Positions 2,677 through 27,342 of a stretch of 64,000 bases of DNA are shown in pieces. The stretch is from a bacterium (GTDB lineage Bacteria > CAIWAD01), in assembly GCA_030685015.1 (NCBI GenBank), contig JAUXWS010000043.1, positions 26,844 to 90,843 of the forward strand. Reading direction: 5' to 3'. Within the stretch, counting starts at the first letter, position 1. Every line of letters begins with the position of its first letter. The position numbers and the translations under genes were made by a program. The notes under the pieces are model-generated. The model ran no database searches, was not told the DNA's origin, and was given only the letters and a program-made list of their open reading frames with translations.

Positions 2677-2692
2677 TGCGAGGCCCCACCCC

Positions 2693-5026: not shown

Positions 5027-5037
5027 GGGGGAGCTTC

Positions 5038-6764: not shown

Positions 6765-6767
6765 GGA

Positions 6768-10182: not shown

Positions 10183-10244
10183 GCGACAATATAACGCTGA
10201 CTGTCGCCGGGTCACGGCCTTGGGCAGTGTGCTAAGTTGGCGCC

Positions 10245-11938: not shown

Positions 11939-13066
11939 CTATTTCAGCAGAAAAATCAAGCCAAGGGGCACGACGAAAAAGGCCATCAGGACGTAGAGCA
12001 TGGGGATCAATCGGCTGCGCAGGGCCAGTTCGGCCATGCCCGAGGCCAGGCCGATGGGCAGGCGACTAAGGGGGAGGAAGAGGGCCGTCCCCGCCGCGTT
12101 GAACAAGGTGTGGACCATGGCAATGGCCACGGCCGCCGGGTTCTGGGTGGAGAGGGCGGCCAGCATGGCCGTGATGGTCGTGCCGAGGTTGGCCCCCAGG
12201 GTGTAGGGGAAGATTTGCTTGAGGGATAGCAGCCCGGCCCCTGCGAAGGGGACGATGAGGCTGGTGGAAACGCTGCTGGACTGCACCGCGATGGTGAGCA
12301 GGACGCCGATCAGCAGGGAGCGGATGGAGGAGCGGAAGATGCTGGCCTCGAACCAGTTCTCCGCCCGGGACAGGGCCACGCCCTTCAAGACCCGCGTCAG
12401 CATGACAATGGCCAGGAAGAGCAGGGTGAAGGCGCACAACAGGGAACACCAGGCATGCAGGTGCCAGGGCCCGTCCGTCGGCAGCACCTTGGTGAGCTGG
12501 GTGATGACACCTCTGGCCAGCGGTTCAACCAGAGCCTTGAGCGGACTCAGCACCTCCATGCCATGAACGTCGGCGACCAGGCCGGCCAGCCATTGCCCGG
12601 CATTGTGGAAGAAGCCCGTGAAGTACTCCAAGGGGAAAAAGACCAGGACGCAGAGCACGTTGAAGAAATCATGGACAATGGAGGCGGAGAAGGCGCGACG
12701 GAACTCGGAACTGCGGTTGATGTGGGCCATGGAGACCAGGGTGTTGGTCACCGAGGTGCCAATGTTGGCTCCCATCATGATGGGAACAGCCAGTTCCAGC
12801 TGCAGGGACCCTGAGGCCACCATGGCCACGACCATGGACGTGGTGGCGCTGGAACTCTGCATAAGACTGGTGGCCAGAATTCCGATGAACAAGGCGACGA
12901 GGGGGTTGGATGTGTAGTTCAGCAAGAGGCGGGGCAAATCCTGCCCGAACAGCTTGAAGGATTGGGACATCCATTCGATGGCAAGAAAGAACAGGATGAG
13001 CAGGACGACCAACAGGACCATGCTGAGCCACAGGGACCGGCCCGGTGGCGTCTGGGATGGGTTCAT
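11939..13066 (-). CDS. Na+/phosphate cotransporter family protein (NptA/YjbB-like).
   Basis: Multi-pass membrane protein with the repeated QSSSATT/QSSSVSTS motifs of Na/Pi-cotransporter II-related proteins. The provided ORF runs to 13384 through an AT-rich, atypical region. I trimmed it to Met-107 at 13066; the start remains uncertain. Confidence 0.7.
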   Translation of the reverse strand: MNPSQTPPGRSLWLSMVLLVVLLILFFLAIEWMSQSFKLFGQDLPRLLLNYTSNPLVALFIGILATSLMQSSSATTSMVVAMVASGSLQLELAVPIMMGANIGTSVTNTLVSMAHINRSSEFRRAFSASIVHDFFNVLCVLVFFPLEYFTGFFHNAGQWLAGLVADVHGMEVLSPLKALVEPLARGVITQLTKVLPTDGPWHLHAWCSLLCAFTLLFLAIVMLTRVLKGVALSRAENWFEASIFRSSIRSLLIGVLLTIAVQSSSVSTSLIVPFAGAGLLSLKQIFPYTLGANLGTTITAMLAALSTQNPAAVAIAMVHTLFNAAGTALFLPLSRLPIGLASGMAELALRSRLIPMLYVLMAFFVVPLGLIFLLK

Positions 13067-13445
13067 GCCGCGTTGGCTCCTGGCAACTGCAGAGTCTGTG
13101 GCACAAGGTATGGAAGTGGCAGGGTTAAAGATCATCCGGCGACTTCCCGGCAGCATGTCGGTCATGACCACGCCAAAATCCTGCCCGACACGTTGCAGAG
13201 GCAAGTCGTTGATTGTGAACGGGAACAGACTTCCTTGTTGAAGCAGGTCTGGAAATTCATGGGCGATGTCCGGGCACTTTGGCGGCAGGCACTGGATCCG
13301 CATCAGGCACGCATCGGAGGGCGAGCCTGGCCTGGCTGGGGCTGTAGCCTCAGATAAGTTTACATAATACATCTTATCCGACATTCATATGGTTGGAATC
13401 CGACCTCGTCCGCCCGCCGCGGCGTGGCCGATCCACCACCTGTGA
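13067..13445 (-). promoter_or_regulatory. Long, lower-GC intergenic region: putative promoter/leader of the Na/Pi cotransporter-phoU operon, and terminator region of the upstream TolB-like gene.
   Basis: About 380 bp with no convincing coding signal, in an otherwise tightly packed locus. Locally AT-rich (TTTACATAATACATCTTATCC). It lies immediately 5' of the transporter start on the minus strand. Confidence 0.3.
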
Positions 13446-14396
13446 TCAGGGCTGTCCGTCCATGGACTTCAGATAGATGTCCCACTGCTGCGATTGCCGC
13501 CCGGCAAAGGCAAGGCGTCGACCATCGGGCGACCACGCGGGCAGTTGATCGGCTTCACGCCCCTCTGGACCAAGGGGCAACCACTGGTTTGATTGGGGCG
13601 GGCGCACCAGGATGAGGCCGTCCCGCTCCACCGTGATCTCGCTCACCGCCCAGCCGGCGACGGCATGCCAGTCAGGCTGGCCCAGGATGCGCAGCGAGTC
13701 GACCATCAGCACGGATGGATCCTGGTTCTCCAGCCAGCCCAACTGATGGTTGCCCATGCGCAGCGCCAGGCCTTGGCTGGTGGGCAGCGGGCTGCTGTAG
13801 ATGCCGGCCCCGGTCAATTGGACCAGATTGTCGCTTTCAAGATCAAAGCGGAAAACGGCAGTCCTCCGCTCGGCGTCCCCCAGGTCCCGCCGCTCATCAA
13901 CCCGGTCGGAGACGAAATAGATGGACTTTCCATCGGGGCTGAAGCGGGGGTGCCAGTCGTCCGCGCCGCTGGCGGCGACAATTCGCCGCTGGCGGCCATC
14001 CGCCGCCATGACCAGGATGTCCCGGGGGGGCGAGGCGTCCAGGCTGGGGGCATGGACGGTGCAGACGATCCACCGCCCGTCGGGCGACCAGCTGGGATCC
14101 TCTTCCGCCTCGGGCGTGTCGGTCAAGCGGGTGGGACGGCCGTCGGAGACCTGCATGGTGTACAATTCCCAGTTGCCATCGCCGTTGTTCTGATACACCA
14201 GCTGCAGGCCGTCCGGGGAAAAACTGGGTGCGGTCTGGTCGGCAGAGGAATCGGTCAACCGCCGGGCCGGCGCCTCCAGCCAGGCCGGCTGGTCGATCCT
14301 CTTCGCTCCACCACTCCGCGGTCCCGCGCAGTGGGTATGCAGAAGGCAGACTGCGCCGCAGAGTCCGGCCGTGAGCAAGGCATGGACGTTCTTCAT
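13446..14396 (-). CDS. Periplasmic TolB-like beta-propeller protein (WD40-like PD40 repeats).
   Basis: Signal peptide followed by repeated (F/W)SPDG motifs (FSPDGLQLVY, WSPDGRWIV, FSPDGKSIYF, WSPDGRRLAF). No TolB N-terminal domain is obvious. Confidence 0.7.
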   Translation of the reverse strand: MKNVHALLTAGLCGAVCLLHTHCAGPRSGGAKRIDQPAWLEAPARRLTDSSADQTAPSFSPDGLQLVYQNNGDGNWELYTMQVSDGRPTRLTDTPEAEEDPSWSPDGRWIVCTVHAPSLDASPPRDILVMAADGRQRRIVAASGADDWHPRFSPDGKSIYFVSDRVDERRDLGDAERRTAVFRFDLESDNLVQLTGAGIYSSPLPTSQGLALRMGNHQLGWLENQDPSVLMVDSLRILGQPDWHAVAGWAVSEITVERDGLILVRPPQSNQWLPLGPEGREADQLPAWSPDGRRLAFAGRQSQQWDIYLKSMDGQP

Positions 14397-14407
14397 GATC
14401 TGCCGCC

Positions 14408-15550
14408 TTAGAAGTTCTGCCTCAAGATGTTCTGGAACTGCCTAAGGCTGAGCAGGGCATCGGCGCCGCTGACCGTCCCCGTCGCGTTGAAGCGCCCGCT
14501 TTGCAGGTCGGCCTGCAGGATGCCCCGCGCCGTGCAAAGGGCGGCCGCGCTGTAGGACGGATGACTTGAGTTCATGTCGGGAAAGATGCTGGTCTCACCA
14601 AAGTGCTGGCTGGCCAGTTTGGCGTCGCCCGTGACCGAGACCAGGATGTCCACCACGGTCAAGGCGAATTCACCGCGGCTGATCCGCTCTTCCGGCATGA
14701 AGGCGCCACCCGGACCAGTGCCCATGCCGCCCTCGCGCAGCACATCCTCGATCCAGGTGCGGGCCCAGTGGTCCTGGATGTCGTCCGGACTGAGGCGCTG
14801 GGGGGAGTCGTCGGCCCTGCCCGGTTCGTTGAAGCGGGGCTTGTCCACCTTGGCCCGCTTGGACAGGATCTCGGGCAGCTTCAGCTCCTCCACCAGCAAG
14901 ACGGCCATGTCGGCGCGATCAATGGCGTCCTCCAACGCGATCTTGGAACTGACCCGCGTGCCGGGCCTGGCGCGAATGATCTTGTTGCAGGTCTCCAGCG
15001 CCCGGTCGGCCGGGGCCGACCAATCCCCGCGTTGGGCCACCACCTGGCCGAACTCGCCCACCGCCGTCTGGAAATCCAGGTTGACCATGGCGGCGCGACC
15101 CCGCCAGAAGTGCACCTGCTCGGCCGGCGCCCCCAGCTTGGCGGCCTTCTCCAGGCTTTTGAGGGACTTGTTGTACCAATCATCCGGCTGGACGCGCGTC
15201 AGCACGCGGGCCTGGATCATCCAGGCCTGCCAGCGGTTGTCTGCCATGTCCACCGCTTTCGCGGCCGTCTTCAAGGCCTCCCGCCCTGCCTCCGGCGACT
15301 CCGCCATAAGCAGGGAGCGGGCGGCGTGGGCCATGAAATACTTGGGATCCAGGGCCAGGGCGCGGTCGAACTCCCGCCCGGCAGCCTCCAACTCGCCCCG
15401 ATCCAGCAGGCGAAGGCCCTGATCGACATGGGTTTGCGGTGTATCCAGGAGGGACTCGGATTTGAGCGGAGCTTTGGCGCACCCACCAAGGCCCGCCACC
15501 AGGATGGCTCCCAGCAGGGCGGGGGCCAACCATCGACGCAAGGTGTTCAT
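14408..15550 (-). CDS. Lipoprotein with TPR repeats and a C-terminal SLH (S-layer homology)-like domain.
   Basis: Lipobox LGGCA. N-terminal TPR-like helices (LDPKYFMAHAARSLL). The C-terminal segment DIQDHWARTWIEDVLREGGMGTGPGGAFMPEERISRGEFA matches the SLH consensus (FxDV..HWA...GI..G...F.P...iTRaE). Confidence 0.6.
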   Translation of the reverse strand: MNTLRRWLAPALLGAILVAGLGGCAKAPLKSESLLDTPQTHVDQGLRLLDRGELEAAGREFDRALALDPKYFMAHAARSLLMAESPEAGREALKTAAKAVDMADNRWQAWMIQARVLTRVQPDDWYNKSLKSLEKAAKLGAPAEQVHFWRGRAAMVNLDFQTAVGEFGQVVAQRGDWSAPADRALETCNKIIRARPGTRVSSKIALEDAIDRADMAVLLVEELKLPEILSKRAKVDKPRFNEPGRADDSPQRLSPDDIQDHWARTWIEDVLREGGMGTGPGGAFMPEERISRGEFALTVVDILVSVTGDAKLASQHFGETSIFPDMNSSHPSYSAAALCTARGILQADLQSGRFNATGTVSGADALLSLRQFQNILRQNF

Positions 15551-15565
15551 GTCTGCCTCCGACCT

Positions 15566-16381
15566 TTAGTTGACCACCACGAGGACGCGGCACTCGGAGA
15601 GGAAGGAAAGATTCTCGCTCAGGGCGTGCAGGATCTTGCCGTCCCGGTCCGGGATGACGATGTCCGCCTTGTGGCTGCCGCGCACGTCCGTCGCTTTGAC
15701 CAGCAGCGGCTTGGCACCGATGCGGTCCTGTTGCTGGCGGGCCTGCTCCAGGTTCTTGACATAGCCCACCATGCCGTTGCGCAGGGCCCACTCCCGATCC
15801 ACCCAGGCGTTGCTGTAGATTTCCTCCCCGGAGTCGTTGAGAATGCGCGGGGCCATGGCCGGGCGCAGTTCGAGACCCGTGCAGTCAACGATCAACCCGG
15901 TGTAGACGGACCCCAGGGGATTGATGTCACTGTACTGGATGGGCGTGGGCATGCCGTCCTGGAAGGGCATGCCGCCCAGCAGGACATCGCTCAGGTCGGG
16001 GCCGATCACCATTTCCACCACCAACTCGATGGAGCCGTCGCTCATGTAGATGGGCTCACCCACTTCGCGGAAGTTGCGGCAGACGCCACGCACCTCCGTG
16101 ATGATGCGGTCGTTCTCCAACATGAAATCCTGCACGGTCGTCTCCGAGGTGAGGGTCATGCCCTCCACCGTTTCGAGGATCTTGCGCAGGGCATCGGCGC
16201 GGGCCACGCGGATCTGGCCGGGCCGGCCGCCCACCGCGCTGGGGATGCCAACTCCCTTGGCCCGGATGATGCGGGACTGCCAGTCCACCGATCCGCTCTC
16301 GCTTTCCTGCATGACCTGGGCCAGGATGGCCGAGGAAGCCAGCAGGGTGGCCAGCACGGTCAGACCAATCCAGCGACGCAT
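15566..16381 (-). CDS. Secreted LPP20-family-like protein (FlgP/LPP20 lipoprotein superfamily-like), function unknown.
   Basis: Signal peptide (MRRWIGLTVLATLLASSAILAQ). RAKGVGIP...RVARADALRKILETVEGMTL resembles the LPP20 fold signature (AxGxG...ArraA..dA.r.L). Trimmed from the 292-aa ORF to Met-22. Confidence 0.45.
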   Translation of the reverse strand: MRRWIGLTVLATLLASSAILAQVMQESESGSVDWQSRIIRAKGVGIPSAVGGRPGQIRVARADALRKILETVEGMTLTSETTVQDFMLENDRIITEVRGVCRNFREVGEPIYMSDGSIELVVEMVIGPDLSDVLLGGMPFQDGMPTPIQYSDINPLGSVYTGLIVDCTGLELRPAMAPRILNDSGEEIYSNAWVDREWALRNGMVGYVKNLEQARQQQDRIGAKPLLVKATDVRGSHKADIVIPDRDGKILHALSENLSFLSECRVLVVVN

Positions 16382-16449
16382 GGAGTCCTCCTTCTCTGCC
16401 AGTGTGAACGGCCCGCGCCGGGTGGCGGGCCTTGATCGATCCAAAAAAA

Positions 16450-17310
16450 CTAGCGGGGTTGGCGTGCCCGGCTACGCTCCAGGTTCCACCGTACCCAGTC
16501 GGAATCGCCGGCAGACTCGATGCGCCCGGCGGTCTGGATCCGGCCGTCGGCCCCGATCCGGATCTCCTGCATGTCCCGCACAATGACCAGCCATTCGGCC
16601 AGGCTGACCTCGCGTGGTCCGGCCACGGGCACCGGTCCGGCCACGGGCACGGGAGCGCCGGGCGTGGGGGGCGCCGCCTTGGGCCTGGCCAGGAGGGCGC
16701 CCAGCGAGTCGATGTCGATGGCCGGCCGCGGGTCCACCAGGCCGGCGGCGTCGGAGGCGACGCGCACCTCGCCGCGCATCACCGTGAGCACGGTTTCACG
16801 TCCCTCCGCCACGCTCATCTTGAGCGCCGTGCCGGTGATGGCGGCACCCATGACCTGGGAGCGGATGGTGAAGGAGTCCCCCTCGTCCAGGTCGTCCAGT
16901 TCGGCCCAGATGTCCCCCTCCTCCAGCTCGAGGTCCACCTTGATGGCCGCCTCGCGCTCCTCCTCCAGCAGGCGGGCCAGGCGCAGGGTGGTGGCGGGCG
17001 CCAGGCGCAGCACGTTGCGGTCCAGGAACTCGATCTCGGCTCGGCCCTGGCTGCCTGTGCGCACTCGGTCTCCCTCCTCCACCCGGCTGCGCAGTGGCGC
17101 GTCCAACCAATCGGGCAGCTCGCCCGGCCGGCGGGCCAGCAGACCCTCGCGGAAGCTGACAAGCCCCAGCCCGGTCTCCAGCTGCACGCGGGCGGCCTGG
17201 ACTGCCGCCGGAGCGGCTTCCTGGGCGGCGCGGCTTTTTTCGAAGTCCTGGGCAAGAGCCGGATCCATGCCGGTGGCAACCACCAGCAAGGCGAGAAGGA
17301 TGAGGTTCAT
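16450..17310 (-). CDS. Secreted FecR-domain protein.
   Basis: Signal peptide (MNLILLALLVVATGMDPALA). Central FecR-like beta-rich segment (DRVRTGSQGRAEIEFLDRNVLRLAPATTL). It contains a PVPVAG PVPVAG tandem repeat. Trimmed from the 316-aa ORF to Met-31. Confidence 0.6.
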   Translation of the reverse strand: MNLILLALLVVATGMDPALAQDFEKSRAAQEAAPAAVQAARVQLETGLGLVSFREGLLARRPGELPDWLDAPLRSRVEEGDRVRTGSQGRAEIEFLDRNVLRLAPATTLRLARLLEEEREAAIKVDLELEEGDIWAELDDLDEGDSFTIRSQVMGAAITGTALKMSVAEGRETVLTVMRGEVRVASDAAGLVDPRPAIDIDSLGALLARPKAAPPTPGAPVPVAGPVPVAGPREVSLAEWLVIVRDMQEIRIGADGRIQTAGRIESAGDSDWVRWNLERSRARQPR

Positions 17311-17396
17311 GTCGGGTGCCGCTCTCTGCTTTGCACGGTCGAAAGTGTAGCGATTCGCCCAAGGGCAGGCAACACAAGCCCGGCCTGGGCCACGTT

Positions 17397-18062
17397 TCAC
17401 GCTTCGTGGGATGCACAGGCCCGGCGCAGGCGCGTGATGGCCGCCGCCAGGTCGGGCTGGCGGAAGAGGTGGGAGCCGGCCACCAGGATCTCCGCCCCCG
17501 CCCGGGCGCAGGCCGGGCCATGGACCTCATCCAGACCCCCGTCCACCTGGATGGGGATGGCCACGCCCAGCTCCCGCCACAACTGGCCCAAGCGGCGGAT
17601 CTTGTCCAGCACGGGTGCGTGGAAGGCCTGTCCTCCATAGCCGGGATTGACGCTCATGAGCAGGACGAAATCGAGGTGGGGCGTCAACCAGCGCAGCGGG
17701 GCGATGTCGGTGCCGGGATTGAGCGCCAGCCCGGCGCGGCAGCCGTGGGCGCGGATTTGCTGGAGCAGGCGGTCCGGATGGGGGCCCGCCTCGAGGTGGA
17801 CCGAAAGCCAGTCCGCTCCCGCCGCGGCGAAGGGCTCGATGAAGCCGGCCGGCTCGGCCACCATCAAGTGGATGTCCAGCGGCAGGGTGCTGCGCGTGCG
17901 GACGGCCCGCACGAAATCCGGTCCATAGCTCAGGTTCGGCACGAAGTGGCCGTCCATCACATCCAGGTGCAGCAGGTCGGCGCCGCCGGCGGCACAGGCC
18001 GCCAACTGCACTTCCAGGCGGAAGAGGTCGGCGGCGAGCAGGGATGGGGCAAGGCGGATCAT
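17397..18062 (-). CDS. rpe: Ribulose-phosphate 3-epimerase.
   Basis: Conserved HLDVMDGHFVPN, DIHLMV and MSVNPGYGGQAF motifs. The provided 463-aa ORF has a spurious N-terminal extension. The ATG at 18062 overlaps the stop of the PASTA gene. Confidence 0.9.
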   Translation of the reverse strand: MIRLAPSLLAADLFRLEVQLAACAAGGADLLHLDVMDGHFVPNLSYGPDFVRAVRTRSTLPLDIHLMVAEPAGFIEPFAAAGADWLSVHLEAGPHPDRLLQQIRAHGCRAGLALNPGTDIAPLRWLTPHLDFVLLMSVNPGYGGQAFHAPVLDKIRRLGQLWRELGVAIPIQVDGGLDEVHGPACARAGAEILVAGSHLFRQPDLAAAITRLRRACASHEA

Positions 18063-18826
18063 GGCAGGCTCCTTTCTTGCAGTCGCAGGTCCACCGTCGC
18101 GCCCGGCCGGACCTGGAGGCCCGCCGGCGGATTCTGCCCGACCACCGCCTGGGCATCGGACAGGCCGCTGTCCTGGGCGCTGGCCAGACCGACGCGGGCC
18201 AGGGTCCTCCTGGCTTGTCGCAGGGTCATGCCGGTCAGGTCGGGCACGGGCACCCAATCGGGGGCTGGGCCCAGGCTGAGCACCACGGCCACCAGGCCTC
18301 CCGGCGGCAGGCTGTCCCCGGCGGCCGGCACCTGGCTGAGCACGGTTCCCTCGCCGAAGCGCGCGTCGTGGCGCCATTGACACCGCAGGGTGTCCAAGTC
18401 CAGCTGGACATCCGCCAGGAGGCTTTGGGCCTGGCGCTGGGTCGCGCCCCGCAGGGTTGGGATCGGCACCTGGCGGCTGCCCGAGCTGAGCGTCACGTGG
18501 ATGCGCCGCCCTGTCTTGGTCATGCGACCGGCGCGCGGATGTTGCTCCATCACCACGCCGGCCGGGAACAGGCCGCTGGGATCGGGCCGGCGGCCGGCCT
18601 GAACCGCTTCGAATCCGGATTGCCGCAGCAGGATCTCCGCCTCGTTCCACTCCAGGCCCAGCACGCGCGGACACTGCCCCACCTCGCCCTGGCGGGTCAG
18701 GGCCGGCATCAGCAGTTGATCGAAGGCCACGAGCAGAAGCAGAAATCCCGCCAGCAGGGCGAACAGGGCCAGGCCCAGGCGCCGCCATCGTCGCGCTGGC
18801 GCTGACGCCACCTGATCACGCCTCAT
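18059..18826 (-). CDS. Membrane-anchored PASTA-domain protein with three PASTA repeats and no kinase or transpeptidase domain.
   Basis: N-terminal transmembrane helix (LGLALFALLAGFLLLLVAF), then three ~65-aa repeats, each with a (V/I)P(D/N)(L/V)xG motif and GxxV...P..G..V.. pattern. The stop overlaps the rpe start. Confidence 0.7.
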   Translation of the reverse strand: MRRDQVASAPARRWRRLGLALFALLAGFLLLLVAFDQLLMPALTRQGEVGQCPRVLGLEWNEAEILLRQSGFEAVQAGRRPDPSGLFPAGVVMEQHPRAGRMTKTGRRIHVTLSSGSRQVPIPTLRGATQRQAQSLLADVQLDLDTLRCQWRHDARFGEGTVLSQVPAAGDSLPPGGLVAVVLSLGPAPDWVPVPDLTGMTLRQARRTLARVGLASAQDSGLSDAQAVVGQNPPAGLQVRPGATVDLRLQERSLP

Positions 18827-18869
18827 CGTCCACCTCTCCCGGCCGCATCACACCTCTTCCTTCCGGCCT

Positions 18870-20207
18870 TCAGCTCCCACCTCGCGCCGGCTTGTCGAGG
18901 GCGATGGCCCAGGCGCCGCCTGCGCCAGGGCGTCCGGGCTGGTCCGGACGCAGACTGCGCCAAGGTCGCCATTCTCGCCCCATGTCCACCAGGGACTCCG
19001 CGGGCACCAGATCCGGCCTGGGCCGCAGCCCTTCCCGTTCCGCCAGGGGCAGCACCTGCTGGCCGTTCTCGCGGGGGTCCATGCTGCAGGTGCTGTAGAC
19101 CAGACGCCCGCCCGGCGCCAGGAGCCCCGTGGCGTGGGACAGGAGCGACGCCTGCAGCTCCAGCAGCTCCGGACTGACCGGATCCTCCTTGCGCAGGATG
19201 TCCGGGCGGTGCCCCACCGTGCCCGAACCCGAGCAGGGCAGGTCCAACAGGATGCGATCCCAACCCTTCTCCGTCACGGCGCGGGCATCCTCCTGCCGCA
19301 GGCGGGCCCGGCCCGCCAGGCGCCGCTCCAGGCTGCGGGCGCGGCCGGGATGGGCCTCCACCGCGGTCAGCTCCACTCCGGGACAGGCCTCAAGCATGGC
19401 CAGGGACTTGCCCCCGGGGGCCGCGCACAGATCCAGCACGCGCATGCCCGGCATCAGGTCCAAGAGGTCCAGCGCGCCCCAGGCGCTCAGGTCCTGGACG
19501 TGCAGGCGGCCATCGGCCAGGGGCGGCAACTGGGCCAGGCCCGCTGCGGGAATCCGGCCCAGGCGCAGGAAAAAGGGACATTCAGGAGCGGCCGAGGGCT
19601 CCAGCCCAAGGCGCGCCAGATCCTCCTCCGCCTCCGCCGCCGTCCAGCGTTGCCGGTTGACCCGCAGCCACAGGCCGCGGCCGCGGTAGAGATCCTGCCG
19701 CAGCCGGTGGAGAAAGGGGCGCTGCCAGGCGGCGGGACCCTCCAGCCGCCCGATCAGGTCCAGGAACCAGGGGGGCAGCGAGAAGGCCACGCCCAGCAGG
19801 CGGCGCTCCTCGGCGCTGCGGGCGGTCTGGGGTCCGGGCAGCGGGGCAAGCGGCTGGTTGTCCCGGACCAGTCCCCGCAACACGGCGTTGACCAGTCCCC
19901 GCTCCGTGGCCGACACCCCAGACAGTGTTTCCAGCAGATTGTCCAGCACGGCATGGGCGGGATGTCCCATCTCCAGCAGCACCAGGCCCAGGCGCAGGGC
20001 GGCCTGCACCCGCGGGCGGGGCGCCCGCCGCAGCCGGGCGGCCAGGACCCAGTCGTGGCGGCGCCACTCCTCCAGCCCATAGCGCACGAGGGCCGTGCGG
20101 CGCGCCGAGGCCGCGCCGGCGGTGGAGCCATCCTGCAGGAGGCGATCACTCCAGGCGCCCTCCTCCAGGCGGACCATGTCCTCCAGCAAGGCAGCCAGTT
20201 CCACCAC
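18870..20207 (-). CDS. rsmB: 16S rRNA (cytosine967-C5)-methyltransferase RsmB/Sun.
   Basis: N-terminal NusB-like region. C-terminal SAM-dependent methyltransferase fold with LDLCAAPGGKS, DLPCSGSG and TCS motifs. Confidence 0.85.
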   Translation of the reverse strand: MVELAALLEDMVRLEEGAWSDRLLQDGSTAGAASARRTALVRYGLEEWRRHDWVLAARLRRAPRPRVQAALRLGLVLLEMGHPAHAVLDNLLETLSGVSATERGLVNAVLRGLVRDNQPLAPLPGPQTARSAEERRLLGVAFSLPPWFLDLIGRLEGPAAWQRPFLHRLRQDLYRGRGLWLRVNRQRWTAAEAEEDLARLGLEPSAAPECPFFLRLGRIPAAGLAQLPPLADGRLHVQDLSAWGALDLLDLMPGMRVLDLCAAPGGKSLAMLEACPGVELTAVEAHPGRARSLERRLAGRARLRQEDARAVTEKGWDRILLDLPCSGSGTVGHRPDILRKEDPVSPELLELQASLLSHATGLLAPGGRLVYSTCSMDPRENGQQVLPLAEREGLRPRPDLVPAESLVDMGREWRPWRSLRPDQPGRPGAGGAWAIALDKPARGGS

Positions 20208-20222
20208 GCCTCCGGCATCATC

Positions 20223-21032
20223 TCAGGGCAGACGCATCGCCTCGCGCTCCGGACGGAAGGCCTCCCGCCAGCGGGCCGCCCCTTCCATCTCCCCGGCGTC
20301 CAGGGCGCGGTCCTCCAGGTCCAAGCCGAAGACCTCGGCAAAGCCCTCCCGCAAGGCGGCGGCCACTTCCGGGAAGGCTGGAGGGCGACCCAGCGCCTCG
20401 GCCAGGCAGGTCGTCTCGCGGGCCAGCTTGCCGGCGGCTGCCTCCCGCAGGCGCGGCTCATCGAAGAAGAGCGCGCCGATGCGCAGGTGTCCCGGCCCGA
20501 TGATGACGCTGCCGTGTTGCAGCAGGCCCTCGCGCAGTTGCCGCTGGGCGCTTCCCACCAGCTTCCGGTTCTGCCACAGCACCTCGCTCTGGGCCGTGGC
20601 GGCGAAACAGAGGCCGCCCGTCTCGCGCCGATAGGCGGCGGCGATGTCCACCCGGCGGGCCTCCTGGCTCAGTTCCAGACCCAGGCCGGCCAGGCCCGTG
20701 GCGAGGGCGGCATTGATGCGCTGATAGGCCTGGGGCAGGTTGCCGCAATGCAGGGGCGAGTGGGCGGGGATGGCCACGCAGTAGGTCAGCTCCTCGTCAT
20801 GGAGCACGGCCCGGCCGCCGGTCTCGCGCCGCACGGCGGGAATGCCCGCCTCCCGCGCCCGGCGCGCCATCTCCGGCGTCCAGGCCTGGCTGTGGCCCAG
20901 CGAGAGGGTGGCGGGACGCCAGGAGTAGCAGCGCAGGGTGAGGGGCGCGCCGCCGCCGCGGGCCAGCACGGCATCCACCGCCATGTTCCAGAGGCCTTCG
21001 CCTTCCGGATGAATCAGCCAGCGGCCTTTCAT
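20223..21032 (-). CDS. Lipoate-protein ligase / octanoyltransferase family protein (BPL_LplA_LipB domain).
   Basis: Conserved RRETGGRAVLHD and K-containing (NRKLVGSAQ) motifs of the LplA/LipB catalytic domain. Its stop overlaps the lpxA gene end region (4-nt spacing pattern). Confidence 0.7.
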   Translation of the reverse strand: MKGRWLIHPEGEGLWNMAVDAVLARGGGAPLTLRCYSWRPATLSLGHSQAWTPEMARRAREAGIPAVRRETGGRAVLHDEELTYCVAIPAHSPLHCGNLPQAYQRINAALATGLAGLGLELSQEARRVDIAAAYRRETGGLCFAATAQSEVLWQNRKLVGSAQRQLREGLLQHGSVIIGPGHLRIGALFFDEPRLREAAAGKLARETTCLAEALGRPPAFPEVAAALREGFAEVFGLDLEDRALDAGEMEGAARWREAFRPEREAMRLP

Positions 21033-21811
21033 CCGGGCAGGATGCCCCGCTCGGACTGTTCCACGAAGCGGATGATCAGGTCCGCGTCGGCTTCCCCGGC
21101 CGCTTCCTCGCGCAGGCGGGCCAGGGCCTGGCTTGCATTGTGGCTTCCCTTGCCGAAGAAGAGGCGATAGTGGTCGCGGATGCGGCGCAGGCGCTCCGGA
21201 TCGAAGCCGCGGCGCTTGAGCCCGACCAGGTTGAGGCCGCAGTACTTGAGCGGCTTGCCGTTGGCCAGGACGAAGGGCGGGACGTCCTTGGTCACTTCCA
21301 TGCCGCCGCCCACGAAGGCGTGGTCGCCGATGTGGACGAACTGGTGGACGGCCACCAGACCCCCCAGGGTGACGCGCTGGCCGATGTGGACGTGGCCCGC
21401 CACCTGCACGCCGTTGACCAGGATGCAGCCGTCGCCCACCTGGCAGTCGTGGGCCAGATGGACGTAGGCCATGATGAGGCAGCCCGCCCCCACCCGCGTG
21501 GCGCCGGATTCGGCCGTGCCGCGGGAGAGGGTGGCGAACTCGCGGATGACCGTGCGCTCCCCTACTTCGAGCAGGCTGTCCTCCCCCTCGAACTTGAGAT
21601 CCTGGGGCAGGCAGGAGACACTGGCCCCCTGATGGACCTCCACGCCCCGGGCCAGGCGGGCACCGGCATGGATGACGGCGTGGGGCCCGATGCGGCAGCC
21701 CTCCCCCAGCTCGACGTTCTCCTCGACATAGGCGAAGGGACCCACCTCGACGCCGGCGCCCAGCCGCGCCGCGGGATGGATCACCGCGCTGGGATGGATG
21801 AGCGGGCTCAC
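21029..21811 (-). CDS. lpxA: Acyl-ACP--UDP-N-acetylglucosamine O-acyltransferase LpxA.
   Basis: Hexapeptide-repeat left-handed beta-helix (IHPSAVIHPAARLGAGVEVGPFAYV...) with a C-terminal helical domain. GTG start at 21811 overlaps the lpxC/fabZ stop (GTGA). The provided 367-aa ORF is N-terminally extended. Confidence 0.85.
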   Translation of the reverse strand: MSPLIHPSAVIHPAARLGAGVEVGPFAYVEENVELGEGCRIGPHAVIHAGARLARGVEVHQGASVSCLPQDLKFEGEDSLLEVGERTVIREFATLSRGTAESGATRVGAGCLIMAYVHLAHDCQVGDGCILVNGVQVAGHVHIGQRVTLGGLVAVHQFVHIGDHAFVGGGMEVTKDVPPFVLANGKPLKYCGLNLVGLKRRGFDPERLRRIRDHYRLFFGKGSHNASQALARLREEAAGEADADLIIRFVEQSERGILPG

Positions 21812-23193
21812 TTGTCCACCACCATGGCGCTCATCTCGGCGCTGGTGACCAGCTGCCCGTCCACGTAGGCCTTGCCCTCCATCAGGCACATGCCGCGCCT
21901 CTGCTTGAGCATGGTCAACTCCATCACCAGCTGGTCGCCCGGACGCACCGGCTTGCGGAAGCGCACTTTGTCCAGGCCGGTGAAGTAGACCACCTTCTCC
22001 TCCGGCCGGTCGTAGCTGTTGAGGAGGAGGATGCCCCCCGTCTGTCCCATCGCCTCCACAATGAGGACGCCGGGCATGATGGGATGCCCCGGGAAATGGC
22101 CGGGGAAAAAGGGCTCGTTGATGGTCACGCATTTGATGCCCCGCACGAACTCGCCGGGCTTCAACTCGGTGATGCGGTCCACCAGCAGGAAGGGATAGCG
22201 GTGGGGCAGGATGCGCTCGATGGCGGCGGCGTCGAAGACCTCCTCGCTCAGGCGCTGCTGGTACTCCTTCTGCAGGCTCTTGCGCACGGCCTCCTGCTTC
22301 AGCTGGCGGACGAGGGCGACATGGGCCGTGTGACCGCCGCGGGCGACGAGGACATGGGCCTTGAGGGGCTGGCCCAGCAGGCAGAGGTCGCCGGCCAGAT
22401 CCACCACCTTGTGCCGCACCGGTTCGTTGGGCCAGTGCGGCTCCTGATCGCCCAGGATGCGCCGGCCGGCGGCCAGCCGCTCGCGATCGATTGTCACGGA
22501 GAAATGCTGCTCCAGGCTCCTGAGGTCCTGGTCGGCCACGTCAAGAAAGACAAGGGCGGCGTCCAGGCTGCCGCCCTGGATGAGGCCGCGGCGCTGCAGC
22601 TCCAACAGCTCGCTGGCGAAGCAGAAGGTGCGCGCCGGGGCGAACTCCTGGATGAATTCGCTCCAGCCGTACATGCTGGTGTACTGGGTGCCCAGGGCCG
22701 GGTTGGCGTAGTCCACCATGTAAGTGACGCGGAACTCCTCGGAGGGCACGACCACGATGTCGATGCCGCTGTCGTCATGGTAGACCACCGTGCGATCCAC
22801 GCTGAGGAAATCGCGCGGCTCCTCCAGCTCGCGGATGCCGGCCTGCTGCAGCACGGCGATGAAGGCCGCCGCCGAGCCGTCGAGAATGGGCGGCTCCGGC
22901 CCGTCCATCTCGATCAGGCAGTTGTCGATGCCCAGCCCGGCCAGGGCCGCCAGCAGATGCTCGGCGGTGTGGACACGCACGCCGTCCACCGCCAGGACCG
23001 TGCCGCGGTCGGTGCTCACCACGTGTTCGATGGTGGCCGGGATGTCCACGACGCGCTCCCCCTCCCGCCGGCGGAAGACCAGCCCGTGTCCGGCCGGGGC
23101 GGGCAGGAAGGTGACCGTGCAAGGGGCGCCCGTATGCAGGCCCAGCCCCGCAATGGTGGCGGAGTCCTCGATGCTTCGCTGGTTGAGGTTCAT
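21808..23193 (-). CDS. lpxC/fabZ: Bifunctional UDP-3-O-acyl-GlcNAc deacetylase / (3R)-hydroxyacyl-ACP dehydratase (LpxC-FabZ fusion).
   Basis: The N-terminal ~300 aa carry LpxC motifs ([37 protein letters not shown]). The C-terminal ~150 aa form a FabZ hotdog ([12 protein letters not shown]...[16 protein letters not shown]). The fusion is characteristic of Bacteroidota and related FCB lineages. Confidence 0.9.
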
Positions 23194-24272
23194 GCCTCTC
23201 CTTCCTCCGTGCCTTCTGCCTCAAGGGAGGACAAACGCTCCTCCAGCCCGGCCAGGCGCCGTCCCAGTTCGCGGGCCTGGCGTTGCAGCTCCGGCAAGTG
23301 GGCCAGGGCCGCTTGCTGCTGAAGGAACTCGCGATGGGGACGGGCCGGGAATCCGGCGTAGATGCGGTCGTCGGGAACGGAGCCGGTCACACCGCTGCCG
23401 CCGCCGATCTGCACGCGGTCGCCGATGCGGATGTGTCCGTTGATGGCCGTGGCGCCGCCGATGCGGCAGTCCGCCCCCAAGCGCGTGGAGCCGGCCACGC
23501 CGGACTGGGCGGCGATGAGGGTGCCCGGCCCCACCTCCACGTTGTGGGCGATCTGGATGAGGTTGTCCAGCCGCGCCCCGTGCCGGATGATGGTGTCTCC
23601 CATCGTGCCGCGGTCCAGGCAGCAGTTGGCCCCGATTTCCACGTCATCCTCGATCACCACGCGGCCGGCCTGGGGAATCTTCAGGGAGCCGCCCTCGGGC
23701 AGGGGGGCGAAGCCGAAGCCCTCGGCCCCCACGATCACGCCGTTCTGCAGGAGCACGCGGTTGCCCAGGACGCAATGCTCCCGCACCTGGCAGCCGGTGT
23801 GGATGAGGCAGTCCTCGCCGATGTGGGCTCCGCCATAGACCGTGGTCTGGCCCAGCAGCCGGCTGCCCCGCCCGATGACCGCCCCCGCCTCCACCACGAC
23901 CTGCGGCCCCAGCCAGCTCTCGGCGTGGACCTGGGCGTCCGGGGCGACCACGGCGCTGTCGTGGCGTCCCCACCCGGGGTGGGGCGGCGCCGGATGGAAG
24001 AGGCGCATGGCCAGCGCGAAGGCGAGGTAGGGATCGGGCACCACCAGCGCGGCGCAGCCCGCCGGGCAGAGGGCGCGGTCCTCCTCGCGCAGCAGCACCG
24101 CTCCCGCCCGGGTGGCGGGCAATTGCGGCCGGTAGCGGGGGCTGGCCAGGAAGCTGAGATGCTCCGGGCCGGCCTCCTCCAGGCCGCGCACGCCGCGGAT
24201 GACCCGGCCGACATCCCCTTCCAGGGCCGCTTTCAGTTCACCGGCCAGATCGGCCAGGGAGAACCGGGGCAT
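23190..24272 (-). CDS. lpxD: UDP-3-O-acylglucosamine N-acyltransferase LpxD.
   Basis: N-terminal uridine-binding domain, long hexapeptide-repeat region, and a C-terminal helix. Trimmed to MPRFSLADLAG. Its stop overlaps the lpxC/fabZ start. Confidence 0.85.
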   Translation of the reverse strand: MPRFSLADLAGELKAALEGDVGRVIRGVRGLEEAGPEHLSFLASPRYRPQLPATRAGAVLLREEDRALCPAGCAALVVPDPYLAFALAMRLFHPAPPHPGWGRHDSAVVAPDAQVHAESWLGPQVVVEAGAVIGRGSRLLGQTTVYGGAHIGEDCLIHTGCQVREHCVLGNRVLLQNGVIVGAEGFGFAPLPEGGSLKIPQAGRVVIEDDVEIGANCCLDRGTMGDTIIRHGARLDNLIQIAHNVEVGPGTLIAAQSGVAGSTRLGADCRIGGATAINGHIRIGDRVQIGGGSGVTGSVPDDRIYAGFPARPHREFLQQQAALAHLPELQRQARELGRRLAGLEERLSSLEAEGTEEGEA

Positions 24273-24273
24273 G

Positions 24274-24858
24274 TCACTTGCCGCCGACGGGCGTCCGCGG
24301 AGCGGCACCCTCACCCTTGGCCGCGCCGGCCCCGCCCTGGAGCTTTTCCAGCACTTTCTGGTTGAGATTGATGTCGATGCTCTCCTCGCGCACATAGACG
24401 ATGATGGGCATGGAATTGTCGAGGATCATGTCATAGCCCTCCTCCTCGGCGACAACGCGGATGGCATCGTTCACCTTGTTGACGAGGGGTTCCATCAGCT
24501 CCTTGTTCCGCCGGAAGAAACGGCCGTTCGGCTCGGCGTAGATCTCGCTGCGGAACTCGTCCAGCTGGGCGATCTTGCGGTCGATGTTGCTGCGCCGCTC
24601 GGAGCGGGAGACGGGGGAGAGCGTGTTCTCCTGCAGGCGGAAGTCGCCCACCTCCGCCTCGATCTCCGCCTCGCGGGCGATGATCTGGCGGTCCCAGTCC
24701 TCCTTCTCCTCCCGCAGGGCCCGCATGCTGGTCTGGTATTCCGAGTAATTGGACAGAACCTGCTCGGAGTTGATCACACCCAGACGCAGGTCCTTGGCCA
24801 TGGCCGGCGGCAGGACCACCAGCAAGGCCAGCAGCAGGGGCAGTGCGACTTTCTTCAT
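24274..24858 (-). CDS. skp: OmpH/Skp-family periplasmic chaperone.
   Basis: Signal peptide (MKKVALPLLLALLVVLPPAMA). Coiled-coil-rich, Lys/Glu-rich, about 190 aa. Lies between bamA and lpxD as in many Gram-negatives. Trimmed from the 251-aa ORF. Confidence 0.75.
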   Translation of the reverse strand: MKKVALPLLLALLVVLPPAMAKDLRLGVINSEQVLSNYSEYQTSMRALREEKEDWDRQIIAREAEIEAEVGDFRLQENTLSPVSRSERRSNIDRKIAQLDEFRSEIYAEPNGRFFRRNKELMEPLVNKVNDAIRVVAEEEGYDMILDNSMPIIVYVREESIDINLNQKVLEKLQGGAGAAKGEGAAPRTPVGGK

Positions 24859-24946
24859 GACGACTCCTTCCGAGTTGGTGTTTGCGTTTGGATGGCAAGC
24901 GCGGGGGCGGCAGGGAGGCCCTCGCCGTTGGTGGGCTGCTTGCCGG

Positions 24947-27256
24947 CTAGAACTCCCGTCCGAACTGGAAGTGGAACTCCCATTTGCCCTGGCGCAAGCC
25001 GGTGCTGGAACTGACGCGGTCGAAGCCATACGCGTAATCCAGGCCGATGAGGCCGATCATGGGCATGTGCAGGCGCAGGCCCAGGCCCGCGCTCTTGTCC
25101 AGATCGCTCAGGGATGAACTCTTCAGGTTCTTCCAGACCTTGCCCGCTTCGCCGAAGACCAGGCCGTAGACCGTGGGGTTGGGGATGAGCTGGAAGCGGA
25201 TCTCCGTTCCCGCCTTGAACTTGATGCGACCGCCGTCCTCGCCCGTGCCCACGCTGCGGTCGCTGTAGCCGCGCAAAGGGGTGCCCAGGCTAAGGCCGCT
25301 GCCGCCCATGAAGAAGCGCTTGATCCAGGGCACCTCGTCCCGGGCGCCCAGCCCGTCCACGATGCCCGCCTCCAGGCTGTTGTAGTGGATGAACTTGCCC
25401 AGGAAAGGACTGTAACTGCGGGCCTCCAGGGTGTAGCGCTGGAAATCGCGCTCCCCCCCCAGGTAGCCGCCACCGATCTCGCTGTCCAGGCGCACGGTGG
25501 AGCCGTTCTGAGGGAACTCCGGGTGGTCGCGGCTGTCCCGCACGAGGGAGACGGACAAGGTGGAGGCCAGCTCGGGATCGTCCTCGTAGATGCCGCGGCG
25601 GTTCAGCTCCGCGCGGGAGCTGCTGACAAAGTTGGTGTAGACCGTCTCCTCCAGGCGGTAGGTGCTGGAGACGCGGAAGTAGTTGTCCGGCCAGGTGAGG
25701 CGCTTGCCCAGCGTCACGCTGCCGCCGCGGCTCTTCTGGTCGAAATCCCAGTTGTAGGTGCGGGTCCGCTGGATGTCGAAGACGCGGAAGCCGGCGAGGA
25801 TGGGCCGATCGAAGAGAAAGGGCTCCTGGAACTCCAGGTTGAGGCTGCGGTAGCTGCGCGCGAACTGCCAGTCGAAGGAGAGGGTCTGGCCGTTGCCCAT
25901 CAAGTTGTTGAGGGAGAACCCGATGGAGCCGACCAGCTTGTCACGCTCGCTGTAGCCGGCGCTCATCATGATCTGGTCGGTGTTCTTCTCCTTGACCTCC
26001 ACCGTCAAGTTGACCTGGTCGGCGCTGGCGATGTCCACATCGGGGTTGACCGCCTCGAAGTAGTTGAGGATGGTCAGATCGCGCAAGCTGCGGCGCAGCT
26101 TGCCCACGTCGAAGGTGTCGCCCGGACGCAGGTGCATCTCGCGCCGAAGGACCTTCTCCTTGGTCTTGTCATTGCCGGCGAAATCCACGCGCTTGACCGA
26201 GAAGACGTTGTTCTCGGTGATCTCGAAGCGGATGTCGATGACGGCCTCGTCCCGGGGCAGCTCCACGGGGCGGACCTGGGCTTGGATGTAGCCCCGGTTG
26301 TAGTAGAGGTCGTGCAAGCCCTCCTGCACGCTCTGCTCCAGCTTCTTGCGGGAATAGGGATCCCCCGGCCGCAGCGAGATCTGGCGCTGCAGCTCCTCCA
26401 CCGTGAAGACCGTGTTCCCCGCCCAGCTGATCTCTCCCACCTCGTAAAGGCGGCCCTCATAGAGGTGGACCAGCACCTTGAGGTCCCGGCTCTGCTCGTC
26501 CACCCAGACACTGTCGGACAGGACGCGGGCATCCCGGTAGCCCAGGTTGTGCAGGTAGGCGACCAGCAGGCCCTTGTCCACCTCGAAGGCCTCGCGGTCG
26601 AACTTGCCGCTGCGGAAGATCATGCGGGGGCGGGTCTTCTTCATGCGGCGGATCAGCTTGGCATCGGACACCTGTTCGTTGCCCTGGATGATCACCTGGT
26701 CGATGCGGATGCGCTGGCCTTCCTTGACCACCACGTGGAGATCGCCCTGCCCCTCTTCGATGTTGCGCACCGCCACCTCCACCTCGGCCAGGCGGAAGCC
26801 TTCCTTCTCATACAGATCCTGCAGGGTGCGCCGCGCTTTGAACATCTCCAGCTCGCCCACGGGCAGGCCGACGGTGACCACCCCCTTGAGGGCGTCGCGC
26901 AGGCGGGTCTTGCCCAGCTTGTCGTTGCCCACGATCTCCAGGCTGCGCAGCCGGGGCAGCTCCTCCACCTGGATTTCCAGGTAGATGCCCTCGCTCAGCT
27001 CGCGGGCCAGCAGCACCTCGACGGAGCTGAAGCGCTTGAGGCTCCACAGCTGGCGGATGGCTTGCTGCACATCCTCCCCGCGCAGGGCGGAGCCCACGCG
27101 CAAGCCGCTGTTGATGCGGATGAGTTGTTCGTCCGTGGTGCTGTTGCCGGTGACGGTGAGGCCCAGCAGGGTGGGTCCGCCGGCTTCGCCGCGGGCCTGG
27201 GCGAAGGCGCCGGCGGCCGCGCAGAGGAGCCAGAACAGAAGGGTGAGTTGGCGCAT
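24947..27256 (-). CDS. bamA: Outer-membrane protein assembly factor BamA.
   Basis: Signal peptide, multiple POTRA-like repeats (VxxI.I.GN...), and a C-terminal Omp85 beta-barrel ending ...FHFQFGREF (C-terminal aromatic). Trimmed to MRQLTLLFWLL. Confidence 0.9.
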   Translation of the reverse strand: MRQLTLLFWLLCAAAGAFAQARGEAGGPTLLGLTVTGNSTTDEQLIRINSGLRVGSALRGEDVQQAIRQLWSLKRFSSVEVLLARELSEGIYLEIQVEELPRLRSLEIVGNDKLGKTRLRDALKGVVTVGLPVGELEMFKARRTLQDLYEKEGFRLAEVEVAVRNIEEGQGDLHVVVKEGQRIRIDQVIIQGNEQVSDAKLIRRMKKTRPRMIFRSGKFDREAFEVDKGLLVAYLHNLGYRDARVLSDSVWVDEQSRDLKVLVHLYEGRLYEVGEISWAGNTVFTVEELQRQISLRPGDPYSRKKLEQSVQEGLHDLYYNRGYIQAQVRPVELPRDEAVIDIRFEITENNVFSVKRVDFAGNDKTKEKVLRREMHLRPGDTFDVGKLRRSLRDLTILNYFEAVNPDVDIASADQVNLTVEVKEKNTDQIMMSAGYSERDKLVGSIGFSLNNLMGNGQTLSFDWQFARSYRSLNLEFQEPFLFDRPILAGFRVFDIQRTRTYNWDFDQKSRGGSVTLGKRLTWPDNYFRVSSTYRLEETVYTNFVSSSRAELNRRGIYEDDPELASTLSVSLVRDSRDHPEFPQNGSTVRLDSEIGGGYLGGERDFQRYTLEARSYSPFLGKFIHYNSLEAGIVDGLGARDEVPWIKRFFMGGSGLSLGTPLRGYSDRSVGTGEDGGRIKFKAGTEIRFQLIPNPTVYGLVFGEAGKVWKNLKSSSLSDLDKSAGLGLRLHMPMIGLIGLDYAYGFDRVSSSTGLRQGKWEFHFQFGREF

Positions 27257-27342
27257 CCGGTGCGGGGAGTCCTGTCTTGTTCTATCGTGGGTAGGAAGGT
27301 AGAGAGAAGGCCCGGCAAAACCAATGCGGGCCGGGTCGGGCT

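Follow-up and report, generated by a model that had tools for sequence, protein, structure and literature searches.

The PASTA domain has usually been treated as a Gram-positive device that couples the status of the cell wall to Ser/Thr phosphorylation or to a penicillin-binding protein (PBP), and a review of the subject describes it as restricted to Firmicutes and Actinobacteria. The closest described relatives of the protein studied here are the Hanks-type kinases PrkC of Bacillus subtilis, Stk1/PknB of Staphylococcus aureus and PknB of Mycobacterium tuberculosis, in which a single transmembrane (TM) helix is followed by tandem extracytoplasmic PASTA repeats. More distant are the class B PBPs (Streptococcus pneumoniae PBP2x, S. 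aureus PBP1 and B. subtilis SpoVD), which have the same PASTA fold and provide a precedent for kinase-independent peptidoglycan binding. We have analyzed a 64-kb stretch of bacterial contig JAUXWS010000043.1 (positions 26,844 to 90,843, G+C ~70%; called the window below, and numbered from its first nucleotide) in which a gene lying between rsmB-like and rpe genes encodes a 255-amino acid (aa) protein with one TM helix and three PASTA repeats. Its best sequence and fold matches are the PASTA kinases, and it shares with the Firmicute PrkC-type kinases the gene slot between rsmB and rpe.

As judged from its sequence, the gene corresponds by position to PrkC, but it is kinase-less and belongs to diderms: the same sensor module appears here as a conserved diderm periplasmic protein, without kinase or PBP, at the PrkC locus and in tight coupling with housekeeping genes. 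Relative to the PASTA Hanks kinases it lacks both the kinase domain and the long juxtamembrane cytoplasmic segment (its cytoplasmic part is 16 residues), its locus has no adjacent PP2C phosphatase, RsgA or RlmN gene, and its PASTA repeats would lie in a diderm periplasm rather than in a Gram-positive wall. Relative to the class B PBPs it has no transpeptidase domain, and the similarity is weak (23.9 bits to the spoVD model, ~5e-4 to the PBP1 PASTA domains). The bare observation is not new, since databases already show this architecture and contain the protein itself (an identical NCBI entry, MDP2360180.1, is annotated "PASTA domain-containing protein"), and its value is limited because function is not demonstrable from sequence. 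Our literature searches returned no paper describing diderm stand-alone PASTA proteins or their position at the PrkC locus.

Architecture of the window protein

The gene at 18059..18826 is a single open reading frame (ORF); it and all other window features given here with coordinates are on the minus strand. Its product matches the Pfam PASTA family PF03793 in three stretches with 100.7 bits (gathering cut-off 23.2; E 4.4e-29), the best stretch, residues 192-249, covering profile positions 1-62 of 64, and besides PASTA it matches no Pfam family at E<=0.1. The NCBIfam Stk1/PknB PASTA-kinase model NF033483 (563 positions) aligns with residues 12-249 only through positions 328-562, that is, its TM and PASTA part, and the score of 100.8 bits falls below the equivalog cut-off of 450. 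An earlier sequence-only reading of this DNA had described a PASTA-only protein with one TM segment, three repeats and no PBP domain. That description holds: the PASTA match, in three stretches, scores above the gathering threshold, there is one hydrophobic segment, and the spoVD_pbp model aligns only over its own last 54 positions.

The Arg-rich cytoplasmic tail, codons 1-16 (MRRDQVASAPARRWRR; 18779..18826), has five Arg residues ahead of the hydrophobic segment, and since these fit the positive-inside rule, an N-in, C-out orientation is predicted. The single TM helix that would serve as the anchor occupies codons ~17-39 (18710..18778), as indicated by hydropathy (Kyte-Doolittle maximum 2.80 at residues 17-35), by the AlphaFold2 (AF2) model, in which a helix spans residues 10-44, and by alignment with the PASTA-kinase model. 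The PASTA array would then be extracytoplasmic, C-terminal to the membrane anchor. A short linker separates the TM helix from the first repeat (residues ~50-118; 18473..18679), which is followed by the second (residues ~119-190; 18257..18472) and the third (residues ~191-250; 18077..18256), after which about six residues remain. The limits of the first repeat come from AF2 secondary structure, a profile alignment to PknB structure 2kui and the boundaries in our 24-member family alignment (A1); those of the second come from the AF2 model and the same two alignments, and those of the third from the best Pfam stretch, the 2kui alignment and AF2. The AF2 model, built from a 24-sequence alignment, has a mean predicted local distance difference test score (pLDDT) of 90.9 and shows three alpha/beta units, each of helix and strands, beyond the long N-terminal helix; its predicted template modeling score (pTM) of 0.57 fits an arrangement like beads on a string. 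Residues ~40-49 (18680..18709; A1 columns ~45-65) hold a juxtamembrane motif, [LIVM]-P-x-[LWY]-x-[RH]-x-G ... V-P-D, which is common to most stand-alone members of the family, has a nearly invariant proline (P41), and can be likened to IP(R/S)WLHV..(I/V)PD in Bacillus-type PrkC. One may speculate that this conserved motif, lying where the TM helix would emerge into the periplasm, is a contact site.

With the predicted model as query, Foldseek searches of the PDB are led by the ectodomain of S. aureus PrkC (3py9, 3m9g) and M. tuberculosis PknB (5e12, 2kui), with E-values of 1e-13 to 1e-10 and a probability of 1.00 to the PrkC and PknB PASTA structures, and the PASTA domains of PBP2x and PBP1 rank lower, at ~1e-5. 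A search of PDB sequences with the family profile gives PknB 2kui at 3.6e-49, S. aureus PrkC 3py9/3m9g at 1.8e-36 and the PBP PASTA domains at 3e-6 to 8e-4. Because the sequence-profile and structural rankings agree, the protein is best described as a kinase-type PASTA array minus the kinase.

The kinase domain is missing from the locus as well as from the protein. Pfam finds no Pkinase match in the 255 aa, and a kinase-domain hidden Markov model (HMM) built from 12 fetched PASTA kinases (positive controls 1e-114 to 1e-123) has no match at E<=10 among the six-frame ORFs of at least 50 aa across the whole window. An in-frame TGA at 18848..18850, eight codons 5' of the PASTA ATG, makes an N-terminal extension of the protein impossible, and the spacer that separates the ORF from the rsmB-like gene (18827..18869), in which a GGAGAGG purine run lies ~8 nt before the ATG, is merely 43 nt long, so that a kinase domain cannot fit upstream. 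The absence of a kinase claimed in the sequence-only reading is thus corroborated by the searches it had called for, and a kinase hidden in a neighboring frame is ruled out by the upstream TGA, the short spacer and the null six-frame search. The same kinase HMM found none in the stand-alone loci L001, L004, L005, L031-L038, L040 and L041 (our designations for contigs carrying relatives of the gene). A PP2C HMM likewise gave no match at E<=1 in the window, although the PASTA-kinase loci of Firmicutes and Actinobacteria have a PP2C gene beside the kinase gene, and neither RsgA nor RlmN was found in the 64 kb.

The genes on either side are tightly packed around the PASTA gene. Upstream, 18870..20207 encodes an RsmB/F-family 16S rRNA m5C methyltransferase (Pfam Methyltr_RsmB-F, E 2e-28, with a weak NusB match); among NCBIfam models RsmB fits it best, with 187 bits, under the equivalog cut-off of 375, and because the RsmB scores fall below such cut-offs "rsmB-like" is the safe name. 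Downstream, rpe (17397..18062) encodes a 221-aa ribulose-phosphate 3-epimerase, which scores 248.3 bits with TIGR01163 (cut-off 212.6) and matches Pfam Ribul_P_3_epim at E 1e-65. The PASTA stop codon (TGA, 18059..18061) and the rpe start codon (ATG, 18060..18062) overlap as ATGA at 18059..18062, just as had been claimed, and this arrangement indicates translational coupling of the two genes. The rpe frame stays open for 726 nt 5' of its true start, giving a 463-aa ORF (17397..18788) that crosses the PASTA gene in another frame; this ORF is an artefact of high G+C, which leaves it without an in-frame stop, and it could mislead automatic gene callers.

The PrkC slot and the stand-alone family

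In nine of 12 Firmicute PASTA-kinase loci the kinase gene is preceded by rsmB at a distance of 3-4 kb and/or followed by rpe at 1.2-1.5 kb. The order is fmt-rsmB-prpC-prkC-rsgA-rpe in Evansella and rlmN-prpC-prkC-rsgA-rpe in two bacilli, and the published prpC-prkC-cpgA operon with its rpe and thiN neighbors (PMC6449344) agrees with this. None of the 12 Actinobacterial PASTA-kinase loci that we fetched has rsmB or rpe nearby. The conserved rsmB-prkC-rpe cluster assumed by the sequence-only reading for both phyla therefore stands for Firmicutes and fails for Actinobacteria. Its placing of the window gene in the PrkC position is sound, since rsmB-PASTA-rpe in the window matches the Firmicute slot in flanks, order and strand, and this positional correspondence is real.

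The same arrangement recurs in other diderms. Among the nearest relatives, which are Delongbacteria-like (47-56% identity), PASTA and rpe are adjacent in every one, and rsmB lies upstream in L004, L005, L032 and the contig of protein P0005, with an amylase gene in its place in L031. A 47%-identical homolog with the same gene order is on a record labeled Delongbacteria_CAIWAD01; in NCBI, Candidatus Delongiibacteriota is a candidate phylum whose placement is uncertain. We note a naming conflict here: L004 (DYSB01000236.1), a contig of a metagenome-assembled genome with 71.5% G+C and rsmB-PASTA-rpe, is titled "Acetofilamentum sp.", which NCBI treats as a Bacteroidaceae genus, and its counterpart in synteny, L032, carries a Delongbacteria label.

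A second group, clade 2, whose proteins are ~30-35% identical to that of the window and whose G+C is 59-70%, has the order tgt-yajC-def-fmt-(thiE/S/G)-rsmB-PASTA-rpe-AhpC/TSA-like-tsaD-lgt (L034, L037, L038, L039, L041 and L042-L121). A metagenome scan seeded from this clade returned 347 relatives, of which 80 loci were kept; the genome and metagenome scans used narrow alignments (A2, A4). In these 80, a co-directional rsmB directly precedes the PASTA gene in 50 of the 54 loci with room for it, and rpe directly follows in 60 of the 66 with room. When stand-alone loci of all lineages are pooled, 63 of 71 have the 4-nt overlap between PASTA stop and rpe start. The TsaD proteins of clade 2 have NCBI matches, at 83% and 76% identity, with an organism label that begins "[Gem", and this label, together with the soil/rhizosphere origin and the G+C content, makes it probable, though not proven, that clade 2 is Gemmatimonadota, with Gemmataceae as a formal alternative; NCBI places Gemmatimonadota in the Fibrobacterota-Chlorobiota-Bacteroidota (FCB) group. 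The rpe products of clade 2 are 44-46% identical to that of the window and those of Firmicutes 42-46%, so clade-2 rpe is as distant from the window's as Firmicute rpe is and the lineages must be deeply separated. Examination of the rsmB-rpe region in related genomes thus shows that at least two diderm lineages, though deeply divergent, have kept rsmB-PASTA-rpe. One clade-2 contig, L039, also has a separate 273-aa Hanks-type kinase gene (10003..10863, minus strand; 215 bits to the kinase HMM) 4 kb from its stand-alone rsmB-PASTA-rpe operon and on the opposite strand, a situation seen in one of the five clade-2 loci examined; the kinase may be a split partner of the PASTA protein, or its presence there may be coincidental.

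Elsewhere the linkage loosens. A third contig, the low-G+C L035, has rpe (47% identical to the window's) 458 nt downstream of PASTA, followed by folP and cdaA, and in two Bacteroidota-type loci rsmB and rpe are both missing. In the Bacteroidota-like locus L036 the PASTA gene is adjoined, divergently, by lgt, a gene that is also present in the clade-2 string.

The family as a whole is wide and uniform. Searching with the single sequence gave 31 relatives, almost all of them PASTA-only proteins of 232-262 aa, and relatives with 24-56% identity and lengths of ~240-260 aa share the layout of the window protein. A profile search, among the candidates scored, gave 225 relatives at E<=1e-5, mostly PASTA-only proteins of 235-300 aa. 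Its named matches come from Bacteroidota (Runella, Thermoflexibacter), Endomicrobium, Elusimicrobia, Saccharimonadales, Planctomycetota and one deltaproteobacterium, and are annotated "PASTA domain-containing protein" or, mistakenly, "serine/threonine-protein kinase". The database "PASTA domain-containing proteins" of Bacteroidota, Elusimicrobia, Saccharimonadales and others resemble the window protein in being TM plus three-PASTA proteins of ~240-280 aa that match the same profile; the Bacteroidota-type members examined differ in lacking flanking rsmB and rpe and in forming their own clade. All 24 members of alignment A1 consist of a short basic tail, one TM segment and three PASTA repeats; the cytoplasmic tails are basic and poorly conserved across homologs, with 0-29 residues. 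Eight relatives at 47-56% identity have 66 invariant columns. NCBIfam has no dedicated model for stand-alone TM plus three-PASTA proteins, nor do they have a Pfam family of their own. The PASTA gene is identical in L001, L002 and L003, which leaves the ratio of non-synonymous to synonymous substitutions uninformative. From the evidence of length, layout and invariant positions, the window gene appears to be conserved and functional.

At the level of the superfamily, a whole-library profile search returned 64,455 PASTA clusters at E<=1e-3, a figure that gives family size only, as giant multi-PASTA proteins dominate the top of the ranking. The opinion that PASTA proteins are uncommon in FCB-like diderms is not supported, because the stand-alone family is wide (hundreds of PASTA-only proteins of 235-300 aa, and 347 metagenome relatives in a scan seeded from one lineage) and the superfamily has so many clusters. 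The giant proteins (P0154-P0303) are 2,000-5,200 aa long and nearly all tandem PASTA, with up to 28 three-PASTA matches per protein. A Chloroflexia locus, L025, has an array of near-identical PASTA repeats at 2054..7071 with apparent frameshifts between overlapping ORFs.

A neighbor-joining tree of the TM plus three-PASTA regions places the Delongbacteria-like and the Bacteroidota proteins in clades with 100% bootstrap support each, the split between kinases and stand-alone proteins appears in 5 of 200 bootstraps, and the deep nodes are poorly supported. When HMMs were made for each repeat position (R1, R2, R3), the first repeat of the kinases tended to favor R1 and the later repeats were mixed. 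Two scenarios are compatible with these data: the kinase may have disappeared early, with prpC, rsgA and rlmN going too, or a PASTA gene already present at this position may have been joined to a kinase later.

Possible function and alternative explanations

Since the protein has no output domain, its action must be in the membrane or the periplasm. The reading that we favor, at a probability of about one half and by analogy with characterized PASTA proteins, is that it is a bitopic, non-catalytic, membrane-anchored adaptor that binds meso-diaminopimelate (mDAP)-type peptidoglycan precursors. It would be an inner-membrane protein of a Delongbacteria-like diderm, with a 16-residue basic tail in the cytoplasm, one TM helix and three PASTA repeats in the periplasm. 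Homology links it to the TM-plus-sensor half of the PrkC/PknB/Stk1-type kinases, and its gene is presumably expressed along with housekeeping genes, its translation being coupled to that of rpe. Its PASTA repeats may bind mDAP-type precursors or un-crosslinked stem peptides, such as those of lipid II and nascent glycan strands, and the protein may thereby mark or organize zones of wall synthesis. This could occur through ligand-driven oligomerization and through a TM and juxtamembrane segment that recruits or restrains a membrane partner or wall enzymes, with no phosphorylation. The idea of a stand-alone muropeptide sensor, already put forward in the sequence-only reading, is plausible. The binding proposed for the adaptor has precedents: lipid II containing mDAP is a ligand of the PknB ectodomain, and its binding governs PknB localization (PMC6428115); peptidoglycan fragments bind PrkC and induce its oligomerization (PMC5786024); and in S. 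aureus PBP1 the PASTA domains bind peptidoglycan and are required, apart from any catalytic role, for the septal plate to form (PMC9426605).

Several points weigh against such an adaptor. The literature searches yielded no paper on stand-alone members; certain PASTA domains, for example those of PonA2, bind neither peptidoglycan nor beta-lactams (summarized in PMC6273383); and in B. subtilis deletion of the PrkC PASTA domains leaves septal localization and activity in growth unchanged, so that PASTA function must be context-dependent, the repeats being dispensable during growth in that species. The operon context gives no family-wide functional clue, because the Bacteroidota-type members are not beside rsmB and rpe. 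A partner kinase may also be encoded elsewhere in the genome, as the absence of kinases established here covers the 64-kb window alone.

Phosphorylation would still be the output if the protein were one half of a split sensor, a TM-plus-PASTA subunit that pairs through its TM and juxtamembrane segments with a separate, ectodomain-less Hanks kinase or another transducer. Homology with the kinase family does run through the TM region, the conserved membrane-proximal motif next to the TM helix might serve as a contact for the partner, and L039 has a kinase gene near its PASTA operon; but that kinase is encoded on the other strand and finds no equivalent in the remaining four clade-2 loci examined, the kinase HMM is null in the window and in the other stand-alone loci searched, no PP2C phosphatase is nearby in the window, and the cytoplasmic tail has only 0-29 residues, poorly conserved. 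We consider this arrangement improbable. Somewhat less credit still goes to the proposal that the protein supplies a PASTA module in trans to diderm FtsI/PBP3-type transpeptidases, docking on them and positioning them on nascent peptidoglycan. It is bitopic, as class B PBPs are, and the PBP1 PASTA domains of S. aureus bind peptidoglycan and are essential for division independently of transpeptidase activity (PMC9426605), yet the kinase PASTA domains are far closer to it than those of PBPs (profile 1e-49 against 1e-6, Foldseek 1e-13 against 1e-5) and PBP, ftsW or mur genes are adjacent in none of the contexts examined. A remnant, one of the options of the sequence-only reading, is very improbable if it means a decaying, non-functional former PASTA-kinase gene: the absence of a kinase domain is the sole point in its favor, whereas the frame is intact, the AF2 model is confident, the 66 columns noted above are invariant, and length, architecture and the coupling to rpe (the 4-nt overlap in 63 of 71 loci) are constant in many lineages.

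The evolutionary side of the interpretation is a separate matter. We put forward tentatively, and with considerable doubt, that the stand-alone gene between rsmB and rpe is the positional ortholog of the sensor half of PrkC, that a PASTA module has been in this slot since a very early bacterial ancestor and was then either fused to a kinase in the Firmicute line or left by an early kinase loss in FCB-type diderms, and that many diderm phyla have a kinase-independent PASTA system. Equally possible, if also rather unlikely when taken alone, is that the shared position is not ancestral and arose by transfer of a Firmicute block followed by kinase loss, or by insertion into an old fmt-rsmB-rpe unit. 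The Actinobacterial PASTA kinases sit elsewhere in the genome, the Bacteroidota-type stand-alone genes are outside the rsmB-rpe locus, and the deep nodes of the tree are too poorly supported to speak against this. In M. tuberculosis, moreover, fmt, fmu and rpe are presumably adjacent without a PASTA gene, so that rsmB-rpe may be the older unit. On the other side, order, strand and tight coupling are the same in at least two diderm lineages whose rpe products are 44-47% identical to the window's, and a recent transfer of the Firmicute block is unlikely because rlmN, prpC and rsgA, which flank the kinase there, are all missing from the window.

Once known, the function of the protein would reveal what PASTA arrays do by themselves, whether ligand binding, localization or scaffolding, a role that is hard to separate from kinase activity in the Gram-positive models, and it would bear on the origins of the PASTA kinases. 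If the positional orthology is true, peptidoglycan synthesis would be read or organized by PASTA proteins independently of kinases in many diderm phyla, contrary to the view taken in review.

Surrounding genes

Upstream of the rsmB-like gene, as context rather than as part of the PASTA unit, the window has a string of mostly envelope genes: bamA (24947..27256), skp (24274..24858), lpxD (23190..24272), an lpxC-fabZ fusion encoding a single 461-aa protein (21808..23193), lpxA (21029..21811) and, between lpxA and the rsmB-like gene, an LplA-like gene of the lipoate/biotin ligase family (20223..21032). These were identified by gene calling and Pfam; the genes were called on L001, a 172.8-kb metagenomic contig that is identical here, and converted (window coordinate = 28827 - L001 coordinate), and Pfam was also run on the window ORFs. 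With bamA, skp, lpxD, lpxC-fabZ and lpxA encoded just upstream and in the same direction, the organism must be a diderm with lipid A synthesis, in agreement with the diderm context proposed beforehand.

On L001, whose PASTA gene is identical, the full order is meaB, bamA, skp, lpxD, lpxC-fabZ, lpxA, lplA-like, rsmB, PASTA and rpe, and beyond rpe come genes for a FecR-domain protein, a 271-aa protein, a TPR and SLH protein and a PD40 protein, all on one strand from meaB to PD40 and with several 4-nt overlaps. A scan of 13000..28500 for sigma-70 promoters and intrinsic terminators gave nothing beyond shuffled expectation, so the case for an operon and co-transcription comes from gene spacing alone, which makes it probable that the bamA-to-lplA string and the PASTA unit are transcribed together.

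In the rest of the window the genes are of a housekeeping nature: methylmalonyl-CoA mutase, UDP-sugar enzymes, uppP, glmS, guaA, folP, ftsH, aconitase and carboxyltransferases. The four genes downstream of rpe are, in window coordinates, those for the FecR-domain protein (16450..17310), the 271-aa protein, which is weakly LPP20-like (15566..16381), the TPR and SLH-domain protein (14408..15550) and the PD40/TolB-like protein (13446..14396). An SLH domain in a diderm that makes lipid A may serve as a tether between the outer membrane and the wall. This FecR-to-PD40 block (13446..17310) is also kept in the Delongbacteria-like contigs L031 and L032.

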